A DNA stretch of 64,000 nucleotides, from the NCBI GenBank assembly GCA_049519355.1, contig JBEKQV010000001.1:220491-284490 (forward strand). Reading direction: 5' to 3'. Every line of letters begins with the position of its first letter. Position 1 is the first letter of the stretch. This DNA comes from Candidatus Microgenomates bacterium. Lineage in GTDB: Bacteria > Patescibacteriota > Microgenomatia > UBA8517. Below, piece after piece: positions 54,920 to 63,972 of this stretch. Below the pieces are notes generated by a model. The model was not told where the DNA came from, made no database searches, and worked only from the letters and a program-made list of their open reading frames with translations. A program made the translations under genes and the position numbers.

Positions 54920-56287
54920 GTGCAATACATGGACAACACTCAGGCGTGGAAAGATTCTCTGGAGATTATTAAGGTTTCTGTTTCTCCGGCTATTTTTTCA
55001 ACCTGGTTTTCCCAAACCCATCTTGCCTCGGTTACCGATGCGGGGGAGAGGGTGGTCGCCGAAGTGGGTTGCCCGACCTCCTTTGCCAAGAACACTATTG
55101 AGACAAGGTATTTCGGTCTTGTACAGGATTCTCTATCCAAAGTTCTGGGGAAAAACTGTGACTTAACTTTTATAGTTAAAGGAAACCCTGCAAAACTTGT
55201 GTCCAATCAAGACTCCGCAGCTCCTCTTTTCTCACCGGAAAAAGACGGTGACATGCTTGAGGTCTTACAAAGAGCTCGGCTTAGACCAAGTTTTACATTT
55301 GAAAACTTTGCAGTTTCTTCCTCGAACCAAATGGCCCATGCGGCAGCCGAAGCTGTATCGCAAAGTTTGGGTGACGCTTATAATCCTTTATTTATTTGGG
55401 GTGGGGTGGGGGTCGGAAAAACCCACCTTATGGTTTCTGTCGGTAACTACATTCTCAGAAACAATTCATCAAAGAAGGTCTTTTTTTGTACGGGTGAGGA
55501 TTTTACAAACGACATCGTCGAGGGAATAAGAAACAAAACCACGCAAGCGTTCAGGAATAAGTACAGAAAACTTGATTTGCTTCTAATCGACGATATTCAA
55601 TTTATTGCCGGCAAGGACACTGTCCAGGAAGAATTTTTCCACACATTTAATGCCGTAACCTCAGTCGGCGGACAAATAATCCTAACTTCCGATAGGCCCC
55701 CTTCAGAAATCTCAAAACTTGAGGAGAGACTCAGGAGCCGTTTTGAAGCGGGTTTAATTGTTGATGTAGCTCCGCCGGATTTTGAGCTGCGGTGTGCAAT
55801 AACTCAAATTAAAGCAAAAGAAAAAGGAATCGACCTAACTTCCGAGCAGGCCCAAATGATTGCGGCAAATTCCGAGTCGGCCAGAAAAATTGAAGGTCTT
55901 CTTACCAAACTCTTAACCGAGATCCATGTTAAAAAGGTTCCGATAACAAACGATCTTATTGAATCTTCCTTTGCAAAGAATTTGGAAAACGGGACAAGAA
56001 TCACAAAAAGCACACCCGACGAAGTTACGGAGGTTGTTTCCAAATATTACCAGGTAGGAAAAAGGCTTCTTCTGGGGGAAAGCCGAGCCCGCCCGATTGC
56101 CAGACCCCGACAAGTTCTTATGTATCTCCTTAGAACCCATCTTGGAATTCCGTTGGAAGAAGTGGGAAGGGTAGTGGGGGGGAGAGATCACACTACTGTT
56201 ATGCACGCTGTGGAAAAGATTACAGATTTGGCCATGCGCGATGTGCAAATCCGTGAGGATATTTTGAGGATAAAACAAAGCATTTGA
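54920..56287 (+). CDS. dnaA: Chromosomal replication initiator protein DnaA
   Basis: The AAA+ Walker A is NPLFIWGGVGVGKTHL and the Walker B is LLLIDDIQF. The C-terminal DnaA-box-binding HTH reads LGIPLEEVGRVVGGRDHTTVMHA. Confidence 0.9.
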   Translation: MQYMDNTQAWKDSLEIIKVSVSPAIFSTWFSQTHLASVTDAGERVVAEVGCPTSFAKNTIETRYFGLVQDSLSKVLGKNCDLTFIVKGNPAKLVSNQDSAAPLFSPEKDGDMLEVLQRARLRPSFTFENFAVSSSNQMAHAAAEAVSQSLGDAYNPLFIWGGVGVGKTHLMVSVGNYILRNNSSKKVFFCTGEDFTNDIVEGIRNKTTQAFRNKYRKLDLLLIDDIQFIAGKDTVQEEFFHTFNAVTSVGGQIILTSDRPPSEISKLEERLRSRFEAGLIVDVAPPDFELRCAITQIKAKEKGIDLTSEQAQMIAANSESARKIEGLLTKLLTEIHVKKVPITNDLIESSFAKNLENGTRITKSTPDEVTEVVSKYYQVGKRLLLGESRARPIARPRQVLMYLLRTHLGIPLEEVGRVVGGRDHTTVMHAVEKITDLAMRDVQIREDILRIKQSI

Positions 56288-56485: not shown

Positions 56486-57601
56486 ATGAAATTACAAATA
56501 CTTCAGGAGAATTTGGAAAAGGCCGTAAGCATAACATCCCGCTTTGCCAGTGTAAAAGCACAACTTCCCATTTTGGGGAACATTCTTCTTTCAACACAAA
56601 AAAGTAAAATCTACATTTCCTCAACCAATTTGGAGATTTCAGCGTCGGTTCAAGTTGGAGCAAAAATAGACGAGGAAGGAGAAATAAGTATTCCTTCAAA
56701 AGTTATTTCTGAGCTGGTCGCGAACTTGCCCAAAGAGACCATATCTCTAACAGCAGAAAAGGAACAACTGAAAATTTCCGCTTCAGGTTTTTCATCGACC
56801 ATTCTGGGAATGAACTCGTCGGATTTTCCGAAAGTGATCAACTCATTAAGTAAAGAAAAGGCAATAGTTTTTTCTCAGGAAGAGTTGTCTAAGGCTTTGG
56901 GACAGGTTGTTTTTGCCACATCGACCGACGAAACTAGGCCGATTTTGACCGGGGTTCTTTTTTTGTTTGGAAAAAATTCGATATCGCTTGTGGCAACCGA
57001 CGGTTTCAGACTTTCGCGCAAGACGTTTTTGGTTAAAGAGGTTAAAGGAAGTGAAAATAGTGTAGTTATTCCGAAGGGTGTTTTGGGTGAGCTTTTAAGA
57101 ACGGTTTCGGAAAACGGAGAGATTCTTTTCGGGTTACAGGAGAAAGAAAAACAAGTTGTATTCAGTCTTGGAGATGTTGTGTTAACCTCAAGGCTTTTGG
57201 AAGGGGAGTATCCTGATTTTGAGAAAATCATTCCTAAGTCTTCCAACATAAAAATTCTTTTAGATAAAGAGGAATTAACAAGAGCGGTTAAACTCGCCTC
57301 TATTTTTGCAAGAGAATCTGCAAACATAGTTAAATTACAAATACTAAAAGACGAAATTAAAGTTTCCGCCGAAAGTTCCTCTGCAGGAAGTCAGGAGACG
57401 AGCGTTGAGGCAAAGATAGAATCCTCACAAAAAGATTTTGAGATAGCCTTTAATTACAGATTTTTAGAAGACTTTTTGCATTCCGTTCAAGGAGAAGAAG
57501 TAAAAATGGAATTTTCTGGGGTTTCTTCTGCTGGAGTGTTTACGGACACCTCTGACAATTCTTATCTTCATTTAATAATGCCGGTAAAAGTTCAAAGCTG
57601 A
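56486..57601 (+). CDS. dnaN: DNA polymerase III beta subunit (sliding clamp)
   Basis: 371 aa. It begins MKLQILQENLEKAVSITSRF and shows a three-domain clamp pattern. It sits immediately downstream of dnaA. Confidence 0.9.
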   Translation: MKLQILQENLEKAVSITSRFASVKAQLPILGNILLSTQKSKIYISSTNLEISASVQVGAKIDEEGEISIPSKVISELVANLPKETISLTAEKEQLKISASGFSSTILGMNSSDFPKVINSLSKEKAIVFSQEELSKALGQVVFATSTDETRPILTGVLFLFGKNSISLVATDGFRLSRKTFLVKEVKGSENSVVIPKGVLGELLRTVSENGEILFGLQEKEKQVVFSLGDVVLTSRLLEGEYPDFEKIIPKSSNIKILLDKEELTRAVKLASIFARESANIVKLQILKDEIKVSAESSSAGSQETSVEAKIESSQKDFEIAFNYRFLEDFLHSVQGEEVKMEFSGVSSAGVFTDTSDNSYLHLIMPVKVQS

Positions 57602-58014
57602 TTTCCGTTTAAATCAACCACATAATATTTGACGGGTGCCGGAACGCCAATTGCTTGCAAATCGAAAACGGCACCGGCAACAATACTTTTTTCCTGGGTG
57701 GCTGTCGCAGGAACTTTTAACCGGATTCTGAAAGACTGAGTGTTAAAATCGTAGACGGCTTCGTAGTTTGTTGTTTCCAGAGGAAGTTTTGAATACCATG
57801 GGTATTGTGTATTAAGAATCGTTAGAGCCTGACCATACTTGAGATCGTCAGGTAGCGCCGTACTGGTAACCAGGGGTGGAGTTGTTTCTGGAGTGGGGGA
57901 TGGTGTTAGAGAAGCGACCGGCTTCGGTGTGGGGTGTTGCAAGACAACAACCACAAGAATGATGATACAAATTAATGAAACAGCACCGAGCACAATTATA
58001 AGTTTTTTCTTCAT
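57592..58014 (-). CDS. Small signal-anchored secreted protein (hypothetical), last gene of the T4SS-like operon (start taken at MKKKLIIV)
   Basis: An N-terminal TM/signal (LIIVLGAVSLICIIILVVVVL) then a PT-rich linker and a roughly 90-aa beta-rich domain. It overlaps the 3' end of dnaN convergently. Confidence 0.4.
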   Translation of the reverse strand: MKKKLIIVLGAVSLICIIILVVVVLQHPTPKPVASLTPSPTPETTPPLVTSTALPDDLKYGQALTILNTQYPWYSKLPLETTNYEAVYDFNTQSFRIRLKVPATATQEKSIVAGAVFDLQAIGVPAPVKYYVVDLNGNQL

Positions 58015-58033
58015 ATTTAATTCTACTCCCCCC

Positions 58034-60361
58034 TTAGGGTTTACCGAACCCAATTATACTAATTGTAAAAGATTGTCCACTTGAAGTTTTTAACGGAATT
58101 GTTTCAAAGTGCCCCGAAGAATCCACTGAATAAAACCACCCCGGTTTATAAGGGGCATTCGATTCATATGTGTGGATACCTGCTGAGGATGAATCGGCAA
58201 CGACGCCAACATGGGAGATGGCGTCTGGGCCGTCAAGAGAATTGTTAAAAAAAATAGTGTCGCCGGCGCAGACGTCGTCGTAGGTGGCGGCATTACCTGG
58301 AACCCATTTTCCAGGTTCATTTTTGAAATAGTTTACCATTGTGGGAAGAGGAAATGGAATGTTTTCGTTGATTGCCAGGTAAGATTTTGTTGCCATGTAA
58401 TTGCACCAAAACATGTCTTGGCTGCCTATTACCGCTTCTTGATTAGGCGGGTTTGGGTTTTGTGCAAAAAGAGTGGCGTTCCAGAGATCTGGGTAATCGG
58501 AAGAGTGGTTATAGTATAGGTCAAACCCCAAAGAAAGGTTGTTGGCGATAACTTTTGCGCGGTTGGCAATTTCTGGAGAACAGCCGGCGGCACCACTAAG
58601 AGTGCCCGAACTCGCAGGTACAACATAAGCCCCGGAATTGATGACAAAAAGGATTAGTGCAACGGCAATTGGTAGGGAGAGGAGGGTTATTACAACTGGT
58701 ACGACAATGGTGTCAAGGTAAACACCCGCAAGTCCGGTAAAAAACCTTCCTAAGCCGGAACTCAAACCGGAAAGAGATGACCTTAGTCCCGGAATGCCCT
58801 CATTCCAGACAGTGGCACCACCGTAACCGATCAACCCAGCTGCGGCTGCGGTTACAACAGACCCTCCTGTTAGGAAAAAAGCCGCTATGGCCGCAACGAA
58901 CGCGATAGCAATTTTCCCGTATTTGGCTAAAACATCTTTGACTTTGCCAAGAATTTTTACCCCGACGACTTCGACAAAAAAGGCCACGACCGGACCCACA
59001 ATCGGCGCGAGAGGGCCGAGGACCGGCACAAGAGCCGCCGTAATAGTTGCCGAAAGGCTAAGCCCCGTTGCCCCCTCCAAACCCTTTTCGGCTGCAACCT
59101 GGACCACTTTTTTAATGCCGAAATCTACTCCCGTTTTTTCTCCAAGCCAACCCAAAACAGGTGCTAAGCCTGAACCAACGGCAAGCTTTCCAAGAAAAGA
59201 TCCCCCAACAGCTTCCCAAGCCACAGGCGACCCAAGTCCGGCGATTGGCAAAAGGGCATGTACAGCCTCATTGCTAAAAATGCTTTTAAGAGCGCTGTCT
59301 GCCGGCAGTTTTGTGATTTCTTGACTTAAAAAGGAGCCAACCTTAGAGAGAATATGAGCACGGACATTTTCTATGCCGAAATCGGTTAAGCCTTCTAGAA
59401 AAGAACCCTGCCGGCTCATCAGAGAAGAAAAACCCCTTGCGATTAGACTAAAACCAAGCTTATTAAACCCTTCTTTGGGAGAATTCGAGAGACTGATATT
59501 GAAGTCCGGCAGAAACTCTTTTTGGAAGGAGTCGCCGAAAGCGGCGCGGGTAACGGCCTGACTTATTTCCTGTCTGGTTGCTCCCTGGTCAGACAAAACC
59601 TGAACCCAGTTTTTTAGAGTATCTGCTGTGGTTTTACTTTTGATCGCGGCGTCAACCTGTCCAGGGTTTGCAGACATTGCTGAAAACAAAGATGTTTGAA
59701 CAGAGAGAGAATCTTCCGTTTGTGCATTTTGAACAATGTCCAATGCAGCTTGTTTTGCCGCTGTGTCGGGAATGTTAGAAATTCTTGCCTTTATCTCCCC
59801 TTCGATTACCTCCGCCGTTCTGGGACCGTCAGCTTTGGCAAGTTGTCTTAACTTTTCTCCTTGCACGGTTTTAACATCGGAGGTTTTTTTGGCTTGGTAA
59901 TAAAGCCCTTCATCTTTTAAATTGGCTTCCGCCTGTTTTGCTCTTGCTGCCGCCTTCTCGTAAAGTTCCTGTTGTATTTTAATTACGCGTTTTACTTCCG
60001 CTCCCGAATTTTCAATTGTTTTTTGTTCTTCGGCTTTGCTTTTTGCCGCTTTAGTTTTGAGCTCCTCGAGGTTTTTTGGGACTGTTTGTTGACCTTCGTT
60101 GTTGACGGGTGCAATAAGTGCCCACGAATCAAGAATTTTATTGGCACTGATTACATCGTTAGTCCCAGTGATGTGTTTTATATAATCTCCGAATTCTTTT
60201 GGAGTTTTCCAACTTAATCCGAGACCTTTTACAGACCAGGGTTTCGGTTTTACGCCCTCATATCCGCTTCCAAGAATTTCTTTCGGGAAAAAATTAGTGG
60301 CGGCTTCCTGGAGATCGAAAACAATTTCTTTTGTATATCCGAAGGGTAATTCTTTTGCCAT
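58034..60361 (-). CDS. T4SS-associated fusion protein: N-terminal soluble Lys/Ala-rich domain, central VirB6/TrbL-like polytopic membrane domain, C-terminal CHAP (Cys/His amidohydrolase-peptidase) peptidoglycan hydrolase domain
   Basis: Residues 1-430 are hydrophilic. Residues 430-630 hold six to seven Gly/Ala-rich TM helices. The C-terminus reads QDMFWCNYMATKS...GDTIFF...DAISHVGVV, which places the Cys and His of a CHAP domain. The stop lies 1 nt before the VirB4 gene. Confidence 0.55.
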   Translation of the reverse strand: MAKELPFGYTKEIVFDLQEAATNFFPKEILGSGYEGVKPKPWSVKGLGLSWKTPKEFGDYIKHITGTNDVISANKILDSWALIAPVNNEGQQTVPKNLEELKTKAAKSKAEEQKTIENSGAEVKRVIKIQQELYEKAAARAKQAEANLKDEGLYYQAKKTSDVKTVQGEKLRQLAKADGPRTAEVIEGEIKARISNIPDTAAKQAALDIVQNAQTEDSLSVQTSLFSAMSANPGQVDAAIKSKTTADTLKNWVQVLSDQGATRQEISQAVTRAAFGDSFQKEFLPDFNISLSNSPKEGFNKLGFSLIARGFSSLMSRQGSFLEGLTDFGIENVRAHILSKVGSFLSQEITKLPADSALKSIFSNEAVHALLPIAGLGSPVAWEAVGGSFLGKLAVGSGLAPVLGWLGEKTGVDFGIKKVVQVAAEKGLEGATGLSLSATITAALVPVLGPLAPIVGPVVAFFVEVVGVKILGKVKDVLAKYGKIAIAFVAAIAAFFLTGGSVVTAAAAGLIGYGGATVWNEGIPGLRSSLSGLSSGLGRFFTGLAGVYLDTIVVPVVITLLSLPIAVALILFVINSGAYVVPASSGTLSGAAGCSPEIANRAKVIANNLSLGFDLYYNHSSDYPDLWNATLFAQNPNPPNQEAVIGSQDMFWCNYMATKSYLAINENIPFPLPTMVNYFKNEPGKWVPGNAATYDDVCAGDTIFFNNSLDGPDAISHVGVVADSSSAGIHTYESNAPYKPGWFYSVDSSGHFETIPLKTSSGQSFTISIIGFGKP

Positions 60362-60362
60362 A

Positions 60363-62198
60363 TTATTTTACTTGGTACGGCCCGGTGTTGATTTTTACAA
60401 CCTCCTGCGGTTTAGTTGTAATAAGTTTATTTTCTTCTTCAGACGCAACAACACGGATGGGGGCGTGGTGTGGTCCGGCAAAAAATATTCCCTCACCAAC
60501 ATTTGCTGCCAATAAGAGCTGTTTTTCTCCTTGGCTCAGATAAAAGACCTCACCAATCTTGTCTATTGCCGCGGGCGACTGTTTTAAAAGGACCTGCATG
60601 GCGCTGTTTGTAACGATGGCCTTTCCAATGTCCTGTCCGAGGAAGTCTTCGACGTCCTGCGTTATTGTAGTGAGTCCCAGGAAGTATTTACGGGCCCTCT
60701 TGACAACACTCCAAAGAAATTGCGCCGTGTCAGGGTATCTCATCATGTGCCAGGCCTCATCTACGATTAAAATTCTTTTCTTCATGTCCTTTTTGACGCG
60801 GGTCCAAATGTAATCGAGAATAATAAACATAGCAATTGGTCTAAGTGCGTCTTGCAGATCCTTGACTGAAAAGACGGTAAACGGATTTGTGATATTAATA
60901 TTTGTTTGTTTATCAAAAATTCCGATGAAACTTCCCCTGACGAACTTTTCAATTCTTGCCGAGAGATCAAGCGCTTCAGGAACTTCCATTCCGATTAAGG
61001 TTTTATAAAGATCTTCCATAAGCGGCGGTTCTTTTCCTTGGGTGTCGGGATCCATTGTTATTCCCTTGGCTCGGTAGGTCATGACAAGCGCTCTATCGAG
61101 GAGGGCCTCCTGTATTGGGGTAATTGCTCCCATAATAACTTTCATTAAAGAGTGAAGAGAAAGAATCTTCAGGCCCAACTGATTTTCGCCTTCCTCTCGG
61201 ATTTGAGAGAGATCAAACGGATTTATTTTGGCGGTCGAGTTGTAGGCGAAGGAAATATATTCACCTCCAACGGCAGTTGCAAGAGGTTGGTATTCGCTTT
61301 CGGGATCGATTACTATTACCTCAACGCCCGTCATAAGAGAGCGTAGTGCCTCAAGTTTTACGAAGTAGGATTTTCCGGCACCTGATGTTGCAAAAATTGT
61401 CATGTTTGCGTTTTCAAGGCTGAAGCGGTCGAAAATTATAAAGGATTCGTTTTGGGAATTAATACCGTATAAAACTCCTCGGTCGCTTGAAAGCTCGGTT
61501 GAAGTTAAAGGAAATGTCGTGGCAACGCTCGTTGTATCCATATTCCTTGTTATATTTAATCTGTCCATTCCGAAAGGCGCAGTCGAAAGAAACCCTGACT
61601 CCTGATCAAGAAGGGCGTGTTTACTTACAATGAGGAGAGACCCGAGTTGGGACTCTACCTGTTTGGTTATTTGGTTTAGCTCCTCGACCGAGTTGGCAGG
61701 AATTGTGATATAAAAGCTGAATTCGTAAAATCTTTCAATACCTTTTACAAGTTGTTCCTGAAGGGCCTGGGCATCTTCGAGTTTTGCTTGGGTTGTGGGG
61801 TCAACTATTTTTCCGCGTTCGATGTCGGTTGACATTTCCGCCTCCATCTCTGCAATTTTCCGTCTGAGGTCGTCAAGAACGCTTTTACCGTCAACAGGGT
61901 AAACATAAAAAGCAATATCAAGTGAAGTGTCCATGTTGATTACGGGCTCAAGCCACCCCGGGGCGACAAAACGCGGATATCCTCCTACAAAAATTGTTCG
62001 GAAATAAATGTCGTTAATTTTTATATAATCGAAATCCTCTTCTATTGATTGGGGAGCTATGGCGTCAAGCAGGTTCATTCCTTGCGAAATGGCAAGGTTG
62101 GGGTTGATTACCTTAGGCTTTACCTCATTTGGTTGAGTGGCCGGAGCGGGGTTTATTGTTTGAACCTGTTTTTGTTTTTTTGTAAATAAATTAGGCAT
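60363..62198 (-). CDS. VirB4/TraE/TrbE-family conjugal-transfer-type ATPase
   Basis: Walker A reads NMTIFATSGAGKSYFVKL and Walker B reads KRILIVDEAWHMM. CagE/TrbE/VirB4-type N-terminal motifs are also present (YFRTIFVGGYPRFVAPGWL). Confidence 0.8.
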   Translation of the reverse strand: MPNLFTKKQKQVQTINPAPATQPNEVKPKVINPNLAISQGMNLLDAIAPQSIEEDFDYIKINDIYFRTIFVGGYPRFVAPGWLEPVINMDTSLDIAFYVYPVDGKSVLDDLRRKIAEMEAEMSTDIERGKIVDPTTQAKLEDAQALQEQLVKGIERFYEFSFYITIPANSVEELNQITKQVESQLGSLLIVSKHALLDQESGFLSTAPFGMDRLNITRNMDTTSVATTFPLTSTELSSDRGVLYGINSQNESFIIFDRFSLENANMTIFATSGAGKSYFVKLEALRSLMTGVEVIVIDPESEYQPLATAVGGEYISFAYNSTAKINPFDLSQIREEGENQLGLKILSLHSLMKVIMGAITPIQEALLDRALVMTYRAKGITMDPDTQGKEPPLMEDLYKTLIGMEVPEALDLSARIEKFVRGSFIGIFDKQTNINITNPFTVFSVKDLQDALRPIAMFIILDYIWTRVKKDMKKRILIVDEAWHMMRYPDTAQFLWSVVKRARKYFLGLTTITQDVEDFLGQDIGKAIVTNSAMQVLLKQSPAAIDKIGEVFYLSQGEKQLLLAANVGEGIFFAGPHHAPIRVVASEEENKLITTKPQEVVKINTGPYQVK

Positions 62199-62886
62199 TT
62201 GTTTGTGCGTGTTCCAGTGTTACCTCGGGTTCTTTTTTGACCGCGGGATGTTCGGGATTATAGACGGACCAGTAAAGATCAATTAAGTCTGCTGTTCCAA
62301 GTTGTTTGAATTTAATTCCAAGGCGGCCCGCCTGGCGGATTAAATGGTCCCGTCTTGGGTAGAGAGTTATTTTTGCTTTTTTGATGACATACGACTTGGG
62401 GAATGGCAATGGACCTCCGCGTTTTGTAATAGCTGCGACGGATTTTCCTATTCCGAGCTCAAGAGGTGATAAATATAAAACAATGAAAAACCTTTTTCCT
62501 AAGACATTTTTCTTTTTAACGGATTCCGTAATAAAACCCCGGTAGTCTTGCATAAGCTTGGCCAAAAGGGGGTGGGTGATTTTTTTGGCCTGTTCATCCA
62601 GAAAATTTAAATATGAGCTTACATCCTTCCTTTGTGTCAGAACGACTATTTGAACGGAGAAGGTAAGTGAATTAATCATGGCGGCGTAGGCGGCAATTAC
62701 CGCTTCCTGCTCTTTTTCCGAAAGAAGACCAAAGTTAAGTGAGGTAGACTCCATTACAAGAGCTGCACCTCCGTCCCGGTAAACAACAACGTCATTTGTG
62801 ATATCGGCAATAGGAAGATGCTCCTCGGTTGTTGCGGTTAAGGGTTTGTCGGGAATATTTAAATACGGAATTTTAGGTAATGCCAT
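62191..62886 (-). CDS. Hypothetical 231-aa protein overlapping the VirB4 start by 8 nt; possibly the detached N-terminal domain of a Gram-positive-type VirB4
   Basis: VVVYRDGGAALVMESTSLNFGLLSEKEQEAVIAAYAAMINSLTFSVQIVVLTQRKD resembles, from memory, the N-terminal region of long (about 800-aa) VirB4 homologs. It has no TM segment. Confidence 0.4.
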   Translation of the reverse strand: MALPKIPYLNIPDKPLTATTEEHLPIADITNDVVVYRDGGAALVMESTSLNFGLLSEKEQEAVIAAYAAMINSLTFSVQIVVLTQRKDVSSYLNFLDEQAKKITHPLLAKLMQDYRGFITESVKKKNVLGKRFFIVLYLSPLELGIGKSVAAITKRGGPLPFPKSYVIKKAKITLYPRRDHLIRQAGRLGIKFKQLGTADLIDLYWSVYNPEHPAVKKEPEVTLEHAQTNA

Positions 62887-62889
62887 TTT

Positions 62890-63972
62890 TTAAAATTGTG
62901 CCGCCGGTTGAGCACTAAATTGATTTATCGCTTGAACGGCGTTCTCGGTTGCCATAACCCTTCTTCCTTGAACGAGAATCGGAGGAACGAGAACTCCTGT
63001 TGCGTCAAAACTTACCGGTGCAAATTGATATCCGTCTTTTTCGGTCACGATGTCATATCTTCCGCTATCAAGAGGGGTAACTGTAATGAAATGCCCAACC
63101 TTATTGCTTCGGAGGGCTCTAACCGGCCGCCCCGTCTCGTCTTTTATTTCCATTATTGCCCCCTCGACGATCTTTCTTTGTTCGTCGACCACCTGTCCGA
63201 CCACCACATTTGGAGTGGTGGGGGGATTTGGGGGAGCGGCGTCAACCGAAAACATTGCCTGTTTGGTTGAAATCATTTCTTCACCTGCAACAATTGGTGC
63301 AACCTGTTGGGCAGTCATTTGGATTGTGGGGGTTCCGGATTGGGGTTTTTCTTCGACGACAAGATGAGGAGCTCCGGGGGAGGGAATTCTAACGGGTTCC
63401 ATAACCGGGATTTGCAGGTTTTTCTCTGCCTGCTGGATGGGAATGTTTGCAACCGGAGCCGTCGGGGAGGTTTGGGATAAGGCCGGTGCACCCTTTCCTG
63501 CAAGTCCTGCGAAAATTCCGCTTAAGGTTGACAGAAAACCTTCCTCGGCGCCTTCAAGTTTGGCAAAGGAACCGGAGGGGTTTTTTGTCGTTGAAAGGTA
63601 TGTTTTAAGGGCGGCTTCCTGTTCGGGTGAAGCAGTAGTCGGAGCCGGGCCCACTTCTTCGTTTTGGAAAAACTTTGGAGGGGTGGTTGTTTTTTTCCAG
63701 AAAAATTCGGTAGGGGTATAAATTGCTTTAAAAAATGCAAAAATCCAGCGTTCAAGAGGTCTTTCTTCTAGGGGCATAAAAGCTAAGGCTACGCCAAGAA
63801 TTACGGAGATTATTGCCAGCGGCCATTTAACTATTCCGATAATAGGAGCTGCGTAGAAAATGATTCCGGCCAAAATTCCTCCGGCAAGCTGGAAGAATTG
63901 TTTAAGAGTCATATCTCCCACAAGTCGGAATTGATACGAAGAAATTTGTTGCGGAATAGGATGTTGTTCCAT
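62890..63972 (-). CDS. PrgI/VirB3-like two-TM protein extended by a Pro-rich linker and a C-terminal beta-sandwich (carboxypeptidase-regulatory-like) domain
   Basis: The N-terminus reads MEQHPIPQQISSYQFRLVGDMTLKQF and is followed by two TM helices. The C-terminus reads GQVVDEQRKIVEGAIMEIKDETGRPVRALRSNKVGHFITVTPLDSGRYDIVTEKDGYQF, a prealbumin-like pattern. Confidence 0.4.
   Translation of the reverse strand: MEQHPIPQQISSYQFRLVGDMTLKQFFQLAGGILAGIIFYAAPIIGIVKWPLAIISVILGVALAFMPLEERPLERWIFAFFKAIYTPTEFFWKKTTTPPKFFQNEEVGPAPTTASPEQEAALKTYLSTTKNPSGSFAKLEGAEEGFLSTLSGIFAGLAGKGAPALSQTSPTAPVANIPIQQAEKNLQIPVMEPVRIPSPGAPHLVVEEKPQSGTPTIQMTAQQVAPIVAGEEMISTKQAMFSVDAAPPNPPTTPNVVVGQVVDEQRKIVEGAIMEIKDETGRPVRALRSNKVGHFITVTPLDSGRYDIVTEKDGYQFAPVSFDATGVLVPPILVQGRRVMATENAVQAINQFSAQPAAQF

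Follow-up and report, generated by a model that had tools for sequence, protein, structure and literature searches.

A membrane protein with a divergent CHAP-type hydrolase domain encoded next to virB4 in an origin-proximal secretion locus of a Microgenomates bacterium

The operon around ORF X

The stretch of 64,000 nucleotides analysed here (the window; contig JBEKQV010000001.1 of Candidatus Microgenomates bacterium, positions 220,491 to 284,490) carries an operon of a type IV secretion system (T4SS) in which an open reading frame (ORF) termed X directly follows the gene for the VirB4-like ATPase. In an original prediction made from the DNA letters, X had been described as a VirB6-like polytopic channel domain fused to a C-terminal CHAP peptidoglycan hydrolase. 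The ORF itself was borne out with its length of 775 amino acids, as were the two strings in which the catalytic residues had been placed, FWCNYMATKS (from residue 651) and DAISHVGVV (from residue 713). Searched exhaustively with phmmer, a set of 1.84e9 representative proteins yielded 345 relatives at E<=1e-3, 58 of them at E<=1e-30, the closest other than X itself at E 1e-136 and 42% identity, and X is therefore a real gene. The identical protein in NCBI is ABSE04_01475. The operon reads 5' to 3' on one strand as follows:

62890-63972, minus strand: PrgI/VirB3-like protein with a C-terminal CarboxypepD_reg-like domain
62191-62886, minus strand: TrsD/TraC-like protein of 231 amino acids (PF26593 on record; PMC12102498)
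60363-62198, minus strand: VirB4-like ATPase of the CD1110 family (NCBIfam conju_CD1110, 3e-111)
58034-60361, minus strand: X, 775 amino acids, with an N-terminal domain, a Gly-rich hydrophobic block, a strong transmembrane (TM) helix and a CHAP domain
57592-58014, minus strand: Y, 140 amino acids from the ATG, with an N-terminal TM helix, a Pro/Thr-rich linker and a small domain of about 90 amino acids

A single nucleotide separates the VirB4 stop codon from the X start codon. Beyond Y lie the convergent dnaN and dnaA, followed by rnpA, yidC and jag, and the operon corresponds to the T4SS locus near the origin that is known from Patescibacteria (PMC12102498). Comparison with 44 GTDB species loci, some of which are cut by contig ends, showed X immediately 3' of virB4 in 43 of them, and the order PrgI-TrsD-VirB4-X-Y-dnaN-dnaA was near-universal and was kept also in a relative carrying an Amidase_2 domain.

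Domain architecture of X and its exchangeable hydrolase

Within X the following features were delimited:

59312-60361, minus strand: N-terminal domain (residues 1-350), mostly helical with a long helix 98-147 and small beta-sheets, without a signal peptide
58706-59269, minus strand: Gly/Ala-rich, marginally hydrophobic block (residues 365-552) with one strong segment (484-502), of low AlphaFold2 (AF2) confidence
58631-58705, minus strand: last TM helix (residues 553-577), the sole strongly hydrophobic TM segment in most relatives
58616-58645, minus strand: juxtamembrane motif VINSGAYVVP (residues 573-582), family pattern [IV]INS[GS]AY[VIL][VA]P
58037-58579, minus strand: divergent CHAP/NlpC-P60 domain (residues 595-775)
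58403-58405, minus strand: codon of the catalytic Cys653, the first residue of helix 653-664
58211-58213, minus strand: codon of the catalytic His717, with which strand 717-725 begins
58157-58165, minus strand: codons of Glu733-Ser734-Asn735, of which Asn735 is invariant; relatives have Gln, Glu or Asp at 733

The original prediction was staked on a Pfam match of X to CHAP, and the scan returned none. Taken literally, this result tells against the call, which is rescued by deeper tests on the family. Pfam domain scans covered 113 members, 60 of which are relatives with tails that can be aligned to X. PF05257 (CHAP) was matched by 57 of these 60 (E<=0.1; best 1e-7) and NLPC_P60 by six, and one relative, P0009, lies above the PF05257 gathering score with 26.2 bits against 26. 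The CHAP membership of X is thus transitive, since its homologues match PF05257 and X itself does not. The tail alignment contains the invariant positions F651-W652-C653, G700, H717 and N735. When the family profile was compared with pCF10 PrgK by hhalign, the CHAP domains alone aligned (E 5e-5), with the catalytic Cys and His in register; comparison with TrsG gave only a weak CHAP alignment. Residues 572-775 were modelled by AF2 with a mean predicted local distance difference test (pLDDT) of 89.5 and a predicted TM-score (pTM) of 0.84. As in papain-like hydrolases, Cys653 lies at a helix N-terminus and His717 opens a strand, and there is a third polar residue. The fold agrees with the papain-like alpha+beta type: the top Foldseek matches of the 572-775 model in the PDB were all NlpC/P60-CHAP hydrolases, namely 4hpe (C. 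difficile CD630_03720, probability 1.00), RipD, MAP1204, T. vaginalis NlpC2 and the CHAP domain of trypanothione synthetase-amidase (2vpm), and in BFVD viral CHAP proteins and endolysins were found with probability 1.00. The matches of the relatives, the invariant residues, the PrgK alignment and the fold together identify the C-terminal domain as a divergent CHAP/NlpC-P60 hydrolase, that is, as a predicted enzyme, and the CHAP claim thus holds by indirect routes. Simpler searches were uninformative: a word-index homologue search returned only the query for full-length X and one fragment for the C-terminal domain, and PDB sequence searches with X alone or with the family profile returned only compositional TolA or coiled-coil matches. 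Almost all tails of the CHAP class share the exact C-terminus GFG[LAK]P (X residues 771-775, window 58037-58051).

The enzyme at this position is not the same throughout the family. All relatives of X share the N-domain, the hydrophobic block and the motif scaffold, and their tails form four BLAST classes, two with CHAP, one with an Ig-like region followed by Peptidase_M23, and one with Amidase_2. Peptidase_M23 was matched in 20 of 46 scanned members (best 2e-21) and Amidase_2 in six of seven. Among 43 typed loci, comprising GTDB species loci and the window, 37 carry an M23 tail, five a CHAP tail (window included) and one an Amidase_2 tail. In a VirB4 tree built from 40 of the loci, each tip with CHAP or Amidase_2 lies nested within M23 tips, and the six changes required are the maximum possible, indicating that the replacements were independent. 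When tail classes were mapped by parsimony onto a tree built from the X scaffold, the outcome was uninformative, with 38 changes versus a shuffle mean of 43 on poorly resolved branches. The hydrolase of X is thus an exchangeable module that has been exchanged repeatedly.

At the opposite end, a Lys/Ala-rich N-domain of about 430 amino acids had been expected. The actual domain comprises about 350 amino acids, with 10% Lys and 11% Ala, and is not of low complexity but confidently folded: residues 10-330 were modelled by AF2 at pLDDT >90 as a globular, mostly helical fold that includes one helix of 50 residues and some small sheets. It matched no Pfam or NCBIfam family, no PDB sequence and, by Foldseek, nothing significant in the PDB or BFVD; the full-length model of X also gave nothing significant against the PDB. 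As the domain has no signal peptide, it would be cytoplasmic. It is the fastest-evolving part of X, with a mean identity of 21% to relatives, as opposed to 59% for the last TM helix and juxtamembrane motif, the most conserved part. One family member (L013, also P0144) has about 2012 amino acids with the scaffold at its C-terminal end, and another (alignment A1) is apparently fused to ribosomal protein L25, which is probably an artefact of gene calling or assembly.

The hydrophobic region between the two domains was less pronounced than anticipated. Glycine makes up 14.6% of residues 351-590, AF2 predicted four to five low-confidence helices in the block (confidence 25-67), and glycine-zipper Pfam models matched the block of a few relatives. 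TM strength was estimated as a simple sum of the Hessa scale (free energy, dG), for X and for 133 full-length relatives. X has two strong segments, 484-502 (dG -0.4) and 556-574 (dG -2.9), and three more that are Gly-rich and marginal (4.0-5.4), so that the six to seven TM helices originally counted were an over-count. Exactly one strong segment was found in 100 of the 133 relatives, always the last one, just before the juxtamembrane motif, and in most of the family this helix reaches dG values of -3 to -6.5 kcal/mol.

The lack of a signal peptide, together with a last TM helix that is the only strong one in most relatives, makes an orientation with the N-terminus inside and the C-terminus outside the simplest reading of the sequence. 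An extracytoplasmic CHAP domain is likewise suggested by the exchange of three unrelated peptidoglycan-hydrolase folds at one C-terminal position. A model with three membrane spans would fit, as a Lys-rich loop at 471-483 (36% K/R family-wide) precedes segment 484-502, and Arg527 and Arg539 lie in the loop that follows it. The juxtamembrane motif includes S-G-A|Y four residues past the hydrophobic core, which we take to resemble a signal-peptidase-I cleavage site of the A-x-A type; presumably, the last TM helix could then serve as an internal signal sequence from which the hydrolase is released.

The hypervariable X-Y cassette

Comparison at the DNA level revealed a sharply bounded region of divergence:

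57600-60352, no strand assigned: hypervariable X-Y cassette, without detectable DNA similarity to the closest loci, between flanks of 73-78% identity

In all four comparisons, DNA identity of 73-78% extended through PrgI, TrsD and VirB4 up to about position 60352, was lost over X and Y, and returned at the stop codon of dnaN, around 57590-57600. The same pattern was seen in the proteins. Between the window and the nearest GTDB loci (L005, L022 and L007), identity amounted to 91-92% for VirB4, 86-89% for TrsD, 84-87% for DnaA, 78-79% for DnaN and 63-67% for PrgI; it fell to 22-30% for X and was not detectable for Y. A further locus, L001, lies at the same distance (DnaN 78%) and keeps the CHAP tail at 58% and Y at 51% identity, which argues for replacement of the cassette rather than uniformly fast drift. 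Y, which sits at the position of PrgL/TrsH (VirB8-like) and varies together with X, belongs to no single family: of the several unrelated ones, three or more go with M23-type X, and related loci have unrelated proteins of about 150, 190, 335 or 380 amino acids in its place. X is therefore unusual by its place, in a hypervariable, module-swapping cassette within an otherwise highly conserved operon.

Some further observations concern the other genes of the operon and the genomes that carry it. In related genomes, VirB4 is better conserved than DnaA and DnaN, with median best high-scoring segment pair identities of 81%, 66% and 56%, respectively (window 60363-62198 versus 54920-56287), which suggests that the T4SS ATPase of these reduced genomes is very strongly constrained. 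The PrgI/VirB3-like protein (62890-63972) has a Pro-rich linker followed by a C-terminal CarboxypepD_reg-like beta-sandwich of about 100 amino acids, and its gene is moderately variable, at 63-67% identity where VirB4 has 92%. Several metagenome-assembled genomes titled 'uncultured Gammaproteobacteria' or 'Alphaproteobacteria' (L004, L008, L010, L014, L018, L020, L024, L036 and others) carry the Microgenomates-type locus; one record so titled is a complete chromosome of 0.81 Mb, and these titles are probably taxonomic mislabels.

X as a candidate wall hydrolase of the secretion system

The reading that we favour, at a probability of roughly 0.65, is that X is a membrane-anchored wall hydrolase of VirB1 function and of the PrgK/TraG/TrsG type, belonging to the MPF_FATA-like, origin-proximal T4SS of Microgenomates (Woesebacteria-type). 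The closest analogues are PrgK of E. faecalis pCF10 (VirB1-like, DELTA class), TraG of pIP501 and TrsG of pGO1. The pCF10 order prgI-prgJ(VirB4)-prgK(hydrolase)-prgL is collinear with PrgI-TrsD-VirB4-X-Y in the window, where X takes the PrgK slot, and the order trsC-trsD-trsE-trsF-trsG(CHAP)-trsH of pGO1 is collinear as well; in these systems as at our locus, the hydrolase gene lies just 3' of the VirB4 gene and is followed by one for a small bitopic protein. In PrgK, an intracellular, Lys-rich N-domain of about 250 amino acids is followed by a TM helix (254-274) and then by LytM, muramidase and CHAP domains outside the cell (PMC11323569). With its basic hydrophilic N-terminal part, membrane anchor and C-terminal hydrolase, X would follow the same body plan, as judged from its predicted topology. 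The collinear gene order and this shared plan indicate that X occupies the VirB1 slot. A published survey found VirB1 homologues not to be associated with virB4 in most classes, Microgenomatia included (PMC12102498), a gap that X would fill.

In this role, X would be co-translated with VirB4 from the single tight operon, and its N-domain of 350 amino acids would stay on the cytoplasmic side, at the foot of the machine. Membrane anchoring would fall to the conserved last TM helix, perhaps aided by Gly-rich helical hairpins, and the extracytoplasmic CHAP domain would locally cut peptide stems or cross-links of the peptidoglycan, letting the secretion apparatus cross the cell wall. The wall that is cut may be the cell's own, that of a host, or both.

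Anchoring of this kind is not new in itself. Intracellular N-domain, TM helix and extracellular hydrolase domains are found in both PrgK and TraG (PMC11323569, PMC12857230), and Gram-positive VirB1-like hydrolases are generally membrane-anchored (PMC12857230), so that the premise of the original prediction, that a tethered hydrolase is unusual, was a weak one. X is unlike PrgK in other respects. Its confidently folded N-domain has an unrelated sequence; a Gly-rich hydrophobic block of about 200 amino acids precedes the anchor where PrgK has one plain TM helix; and it carries a single hydrolase module, without SLT/muramidase or LytM domains beside CHAP, that is swapped among relatives (CHAP, M23, Amidase_2). 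A Patescibacterial, Gram-positive-like T4SS is also known from the saccharibacterium Southlakia epibionticum (SEML1_0006-0019), with peptidase and lysozyme homologues that are encoded directly 3' of virB4 and are essential for epibiotic growth (PMC12102498, PMC10633639). The Microgenomates locus differs from that one in being smaller and in having the hydrolase fused to a distinctive N-domain and hydrophobic scaffold. What is new relative to known systems is the unclassified N-domain, the Gly-rich block, the conserved juxtamembrane motif, the single exchangeable hydrolase and the cassette-like locus; literature searches found no report of the X family or of a VirB6-CHAP fusion.

A number of results weigh against the assignment of X to the PrgK type. 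The failed Pfam CHAP model was part of a scan in which X matched no Pfam or NCBIfam model at E<=1, and the Foldseek figures for the domain in the PDB were modest (E 1.5e-3 or worse, TM-scores 0.35-0.57). PrgK, TraG and TrsG have a glycosidase domain (SLT or muramidase), whereas no SLT or lysozyme domain was found in X or in any scanned relative, and hhalign showed no similarity of the N-domain to those of PrgK or TrsF. It is also odd that a presumed cytoplasmic domain meant to dock onto the ultra-conserved VirB4 should evolve so fast. Finally, were X to cross the membrane only with its two strong segments, the CHAP domain would end up in the cytoplasm.

The VirB6 question requires mention of a second protein. 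About 3.2 kb beyond the end of the window, upstream of PrgI, the same genome encodes:

L051:1617-3281, plus strand: Z, 554 amino acids, with a signal peptide, an ecto-domain of about 170 amino acids and at least seven strongly hydrophobic TM helices

Of 44 related loci, 27 were found to have Z within 10 kb, and none of its 1937 relatives is annotated or matches a Pfam model. No VirB6 similarity was detectable, the hhalign comparison with TrsL reaching only E 0.013. By architecture, Z is closer to VirB6 than X, which is thus not the sole VirB6 candidate; it is plausible that Z is a highly divergent VirB6. Upstream of Z lies a gene for a Cys-rich, apparently secreted protein of 827 amino acids (L051:1-1568, plus strand), the C-terminus of which holds LAIWLNESGASNY, resembling the Glu-Ser catalytic motif of SLT/GH23 lysozymes. 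No Pfam match is on record for this protein, and searching PDB sequences with its C-terminus returned nothing; it could provide the glycosidase that the locus otherwise lacks.

That X combines channel and wall-cutting functions in one polypeptide, with the Gly-rich block as a VirB6-equivalent translocon element, appears unlikely. VirB6 homologues are reported to be scarce in Microgenomatia (PMC12102498), X adjoins virB4 as a T4SS-locus membrane protein like those of the VirB6/TrbL family (PrgH, TrsL/TraL, Tn916 Orf15/ConG and extended VirB6), and a fusion would be collinear with the Tn916 order VirB4 - Orf15 (VirB6-like) - Orf14 (hydrolase). The hydrophobic region is moreover conserved in the family, glycine-zipper-like and, at about 200 amino acids, far beyond the size of a simple anchor, and extended VirB6 proteins of 700-900 amino acids also join hydrophobic helices to large hydrophilic domains (PMC12857230). 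However, TrbL/VirB6 and PrgH Pfam models matched none of the 113 family members, the NCBIfam scan of the family gave no TrbL/VirB6 match and nothing consistent, and the family profile aligned with pCF10 PrgH, pGO1 TrsL (TrbL family) and Tn916 Orf15 at hhalign probabilities of only 0.1-1.5%, although a very remote relationship could have escaped the comparison, as these templates were single sequences, which limits sensitivity. X is also unlike VirB6 in its few strong helices, most segments being marginal and modelled at low confidence, in the N-terminal position of its hydrophilic domain and in carrying a hydrolase, and the strongly polytopic Z is a separate protein. A VirB6 channel fusion is thus not demonstrable for X, given the missing profile similarity, the few strong helices and the separate polytopic protein; of the original interpretation, the T4SS-linked membrane protein with a C-terminal CHAP-type hydrolase is supported, and the homology of its hydrophobic block to VirB6 is not.

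The cassette-like variation and some weak similarities to phage proteins point in another direction, in which X would be a penetration module resembling a tape-measure protein, or a polymorphic effector: extruded by the T4SS, it would enter the target membrane with its Gly-rich segments while the hydrolase breaches the host wall, and Y would act as partner or immunity protein. Phage tape-measure proteins and tail-associated lysins, such as T5 pb2, share with X the order of parts, with a helical region, Gly-rich hydrophobic segments and a C-terminal CHAP- or M23-type muralytic domain. PHROG tape-measure families were matched by four of the 60 relatives (best 2e-6) and tail-associated-lysin families by six (best 3.5e-6), in the N-domain and Gly-rich region of the two members checked; the top BFVD match was a tape-measure protein (E 0.016), and one relative matched SseD, a translocon protein of a type III secretion system. 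The sharply bounded cassette with its swapped hydrolases and unrelated Y families also resembles polymorphic effector-immunity loci. Nevertheless, this scenario is speculative and rather improbable. The matches are weak, concern a minority of members and may be compositional, and X itself matched only one unknown PHROG (E 0.008). Its N-domain is globular and not a long coiled coil, its neighbours are virB4 and dnaN with no phage tail genes nearby, and there is no known export signal; polymorphic toxins, furthermore, keep their N-terminal part conserved, whereas this is the most variable part of X. Very improbable, finally, is a housekeeping hydrolase for wall remodelling or division that merely lies near oriC without functional link to the T4SS. 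Cell separation is a frequent task of CHAP, M23 and Amidase_2 enzymes, and dnaN, dnaA, yidC and rnpA are neighbours, but the one-nucleotide coupling to virB4, the constant position directly after it and the match of the gene order to plasmid T4SS operons all oppose this, and such hypervariability is atypical for housekeeping autolysins.

A wider conjecture, which we regard as doubtful, is that X and Y form a polymorphic host-interaction cassette, in which X couples channel formation or membrane insertion to a swappable enzyme that breaches the wall and fits the host's peptidoglycan chemotype, with Y as partner or immunity protein; replacement of the cassette between virB4 and dnaN would then set or shift the host range. 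If X is, as we favour, the wall hydrolase of the secretion system, its family, which follows virB4 throughout Woesebacteria-type genomes, would supply the component missing from their T4SS. The pattern of variation points to the part of the machine that most likely faces the host or the wall, and the relation of cassette type to host or wall chemistry may offer a concrete handle on organisms that are not yet culturable.

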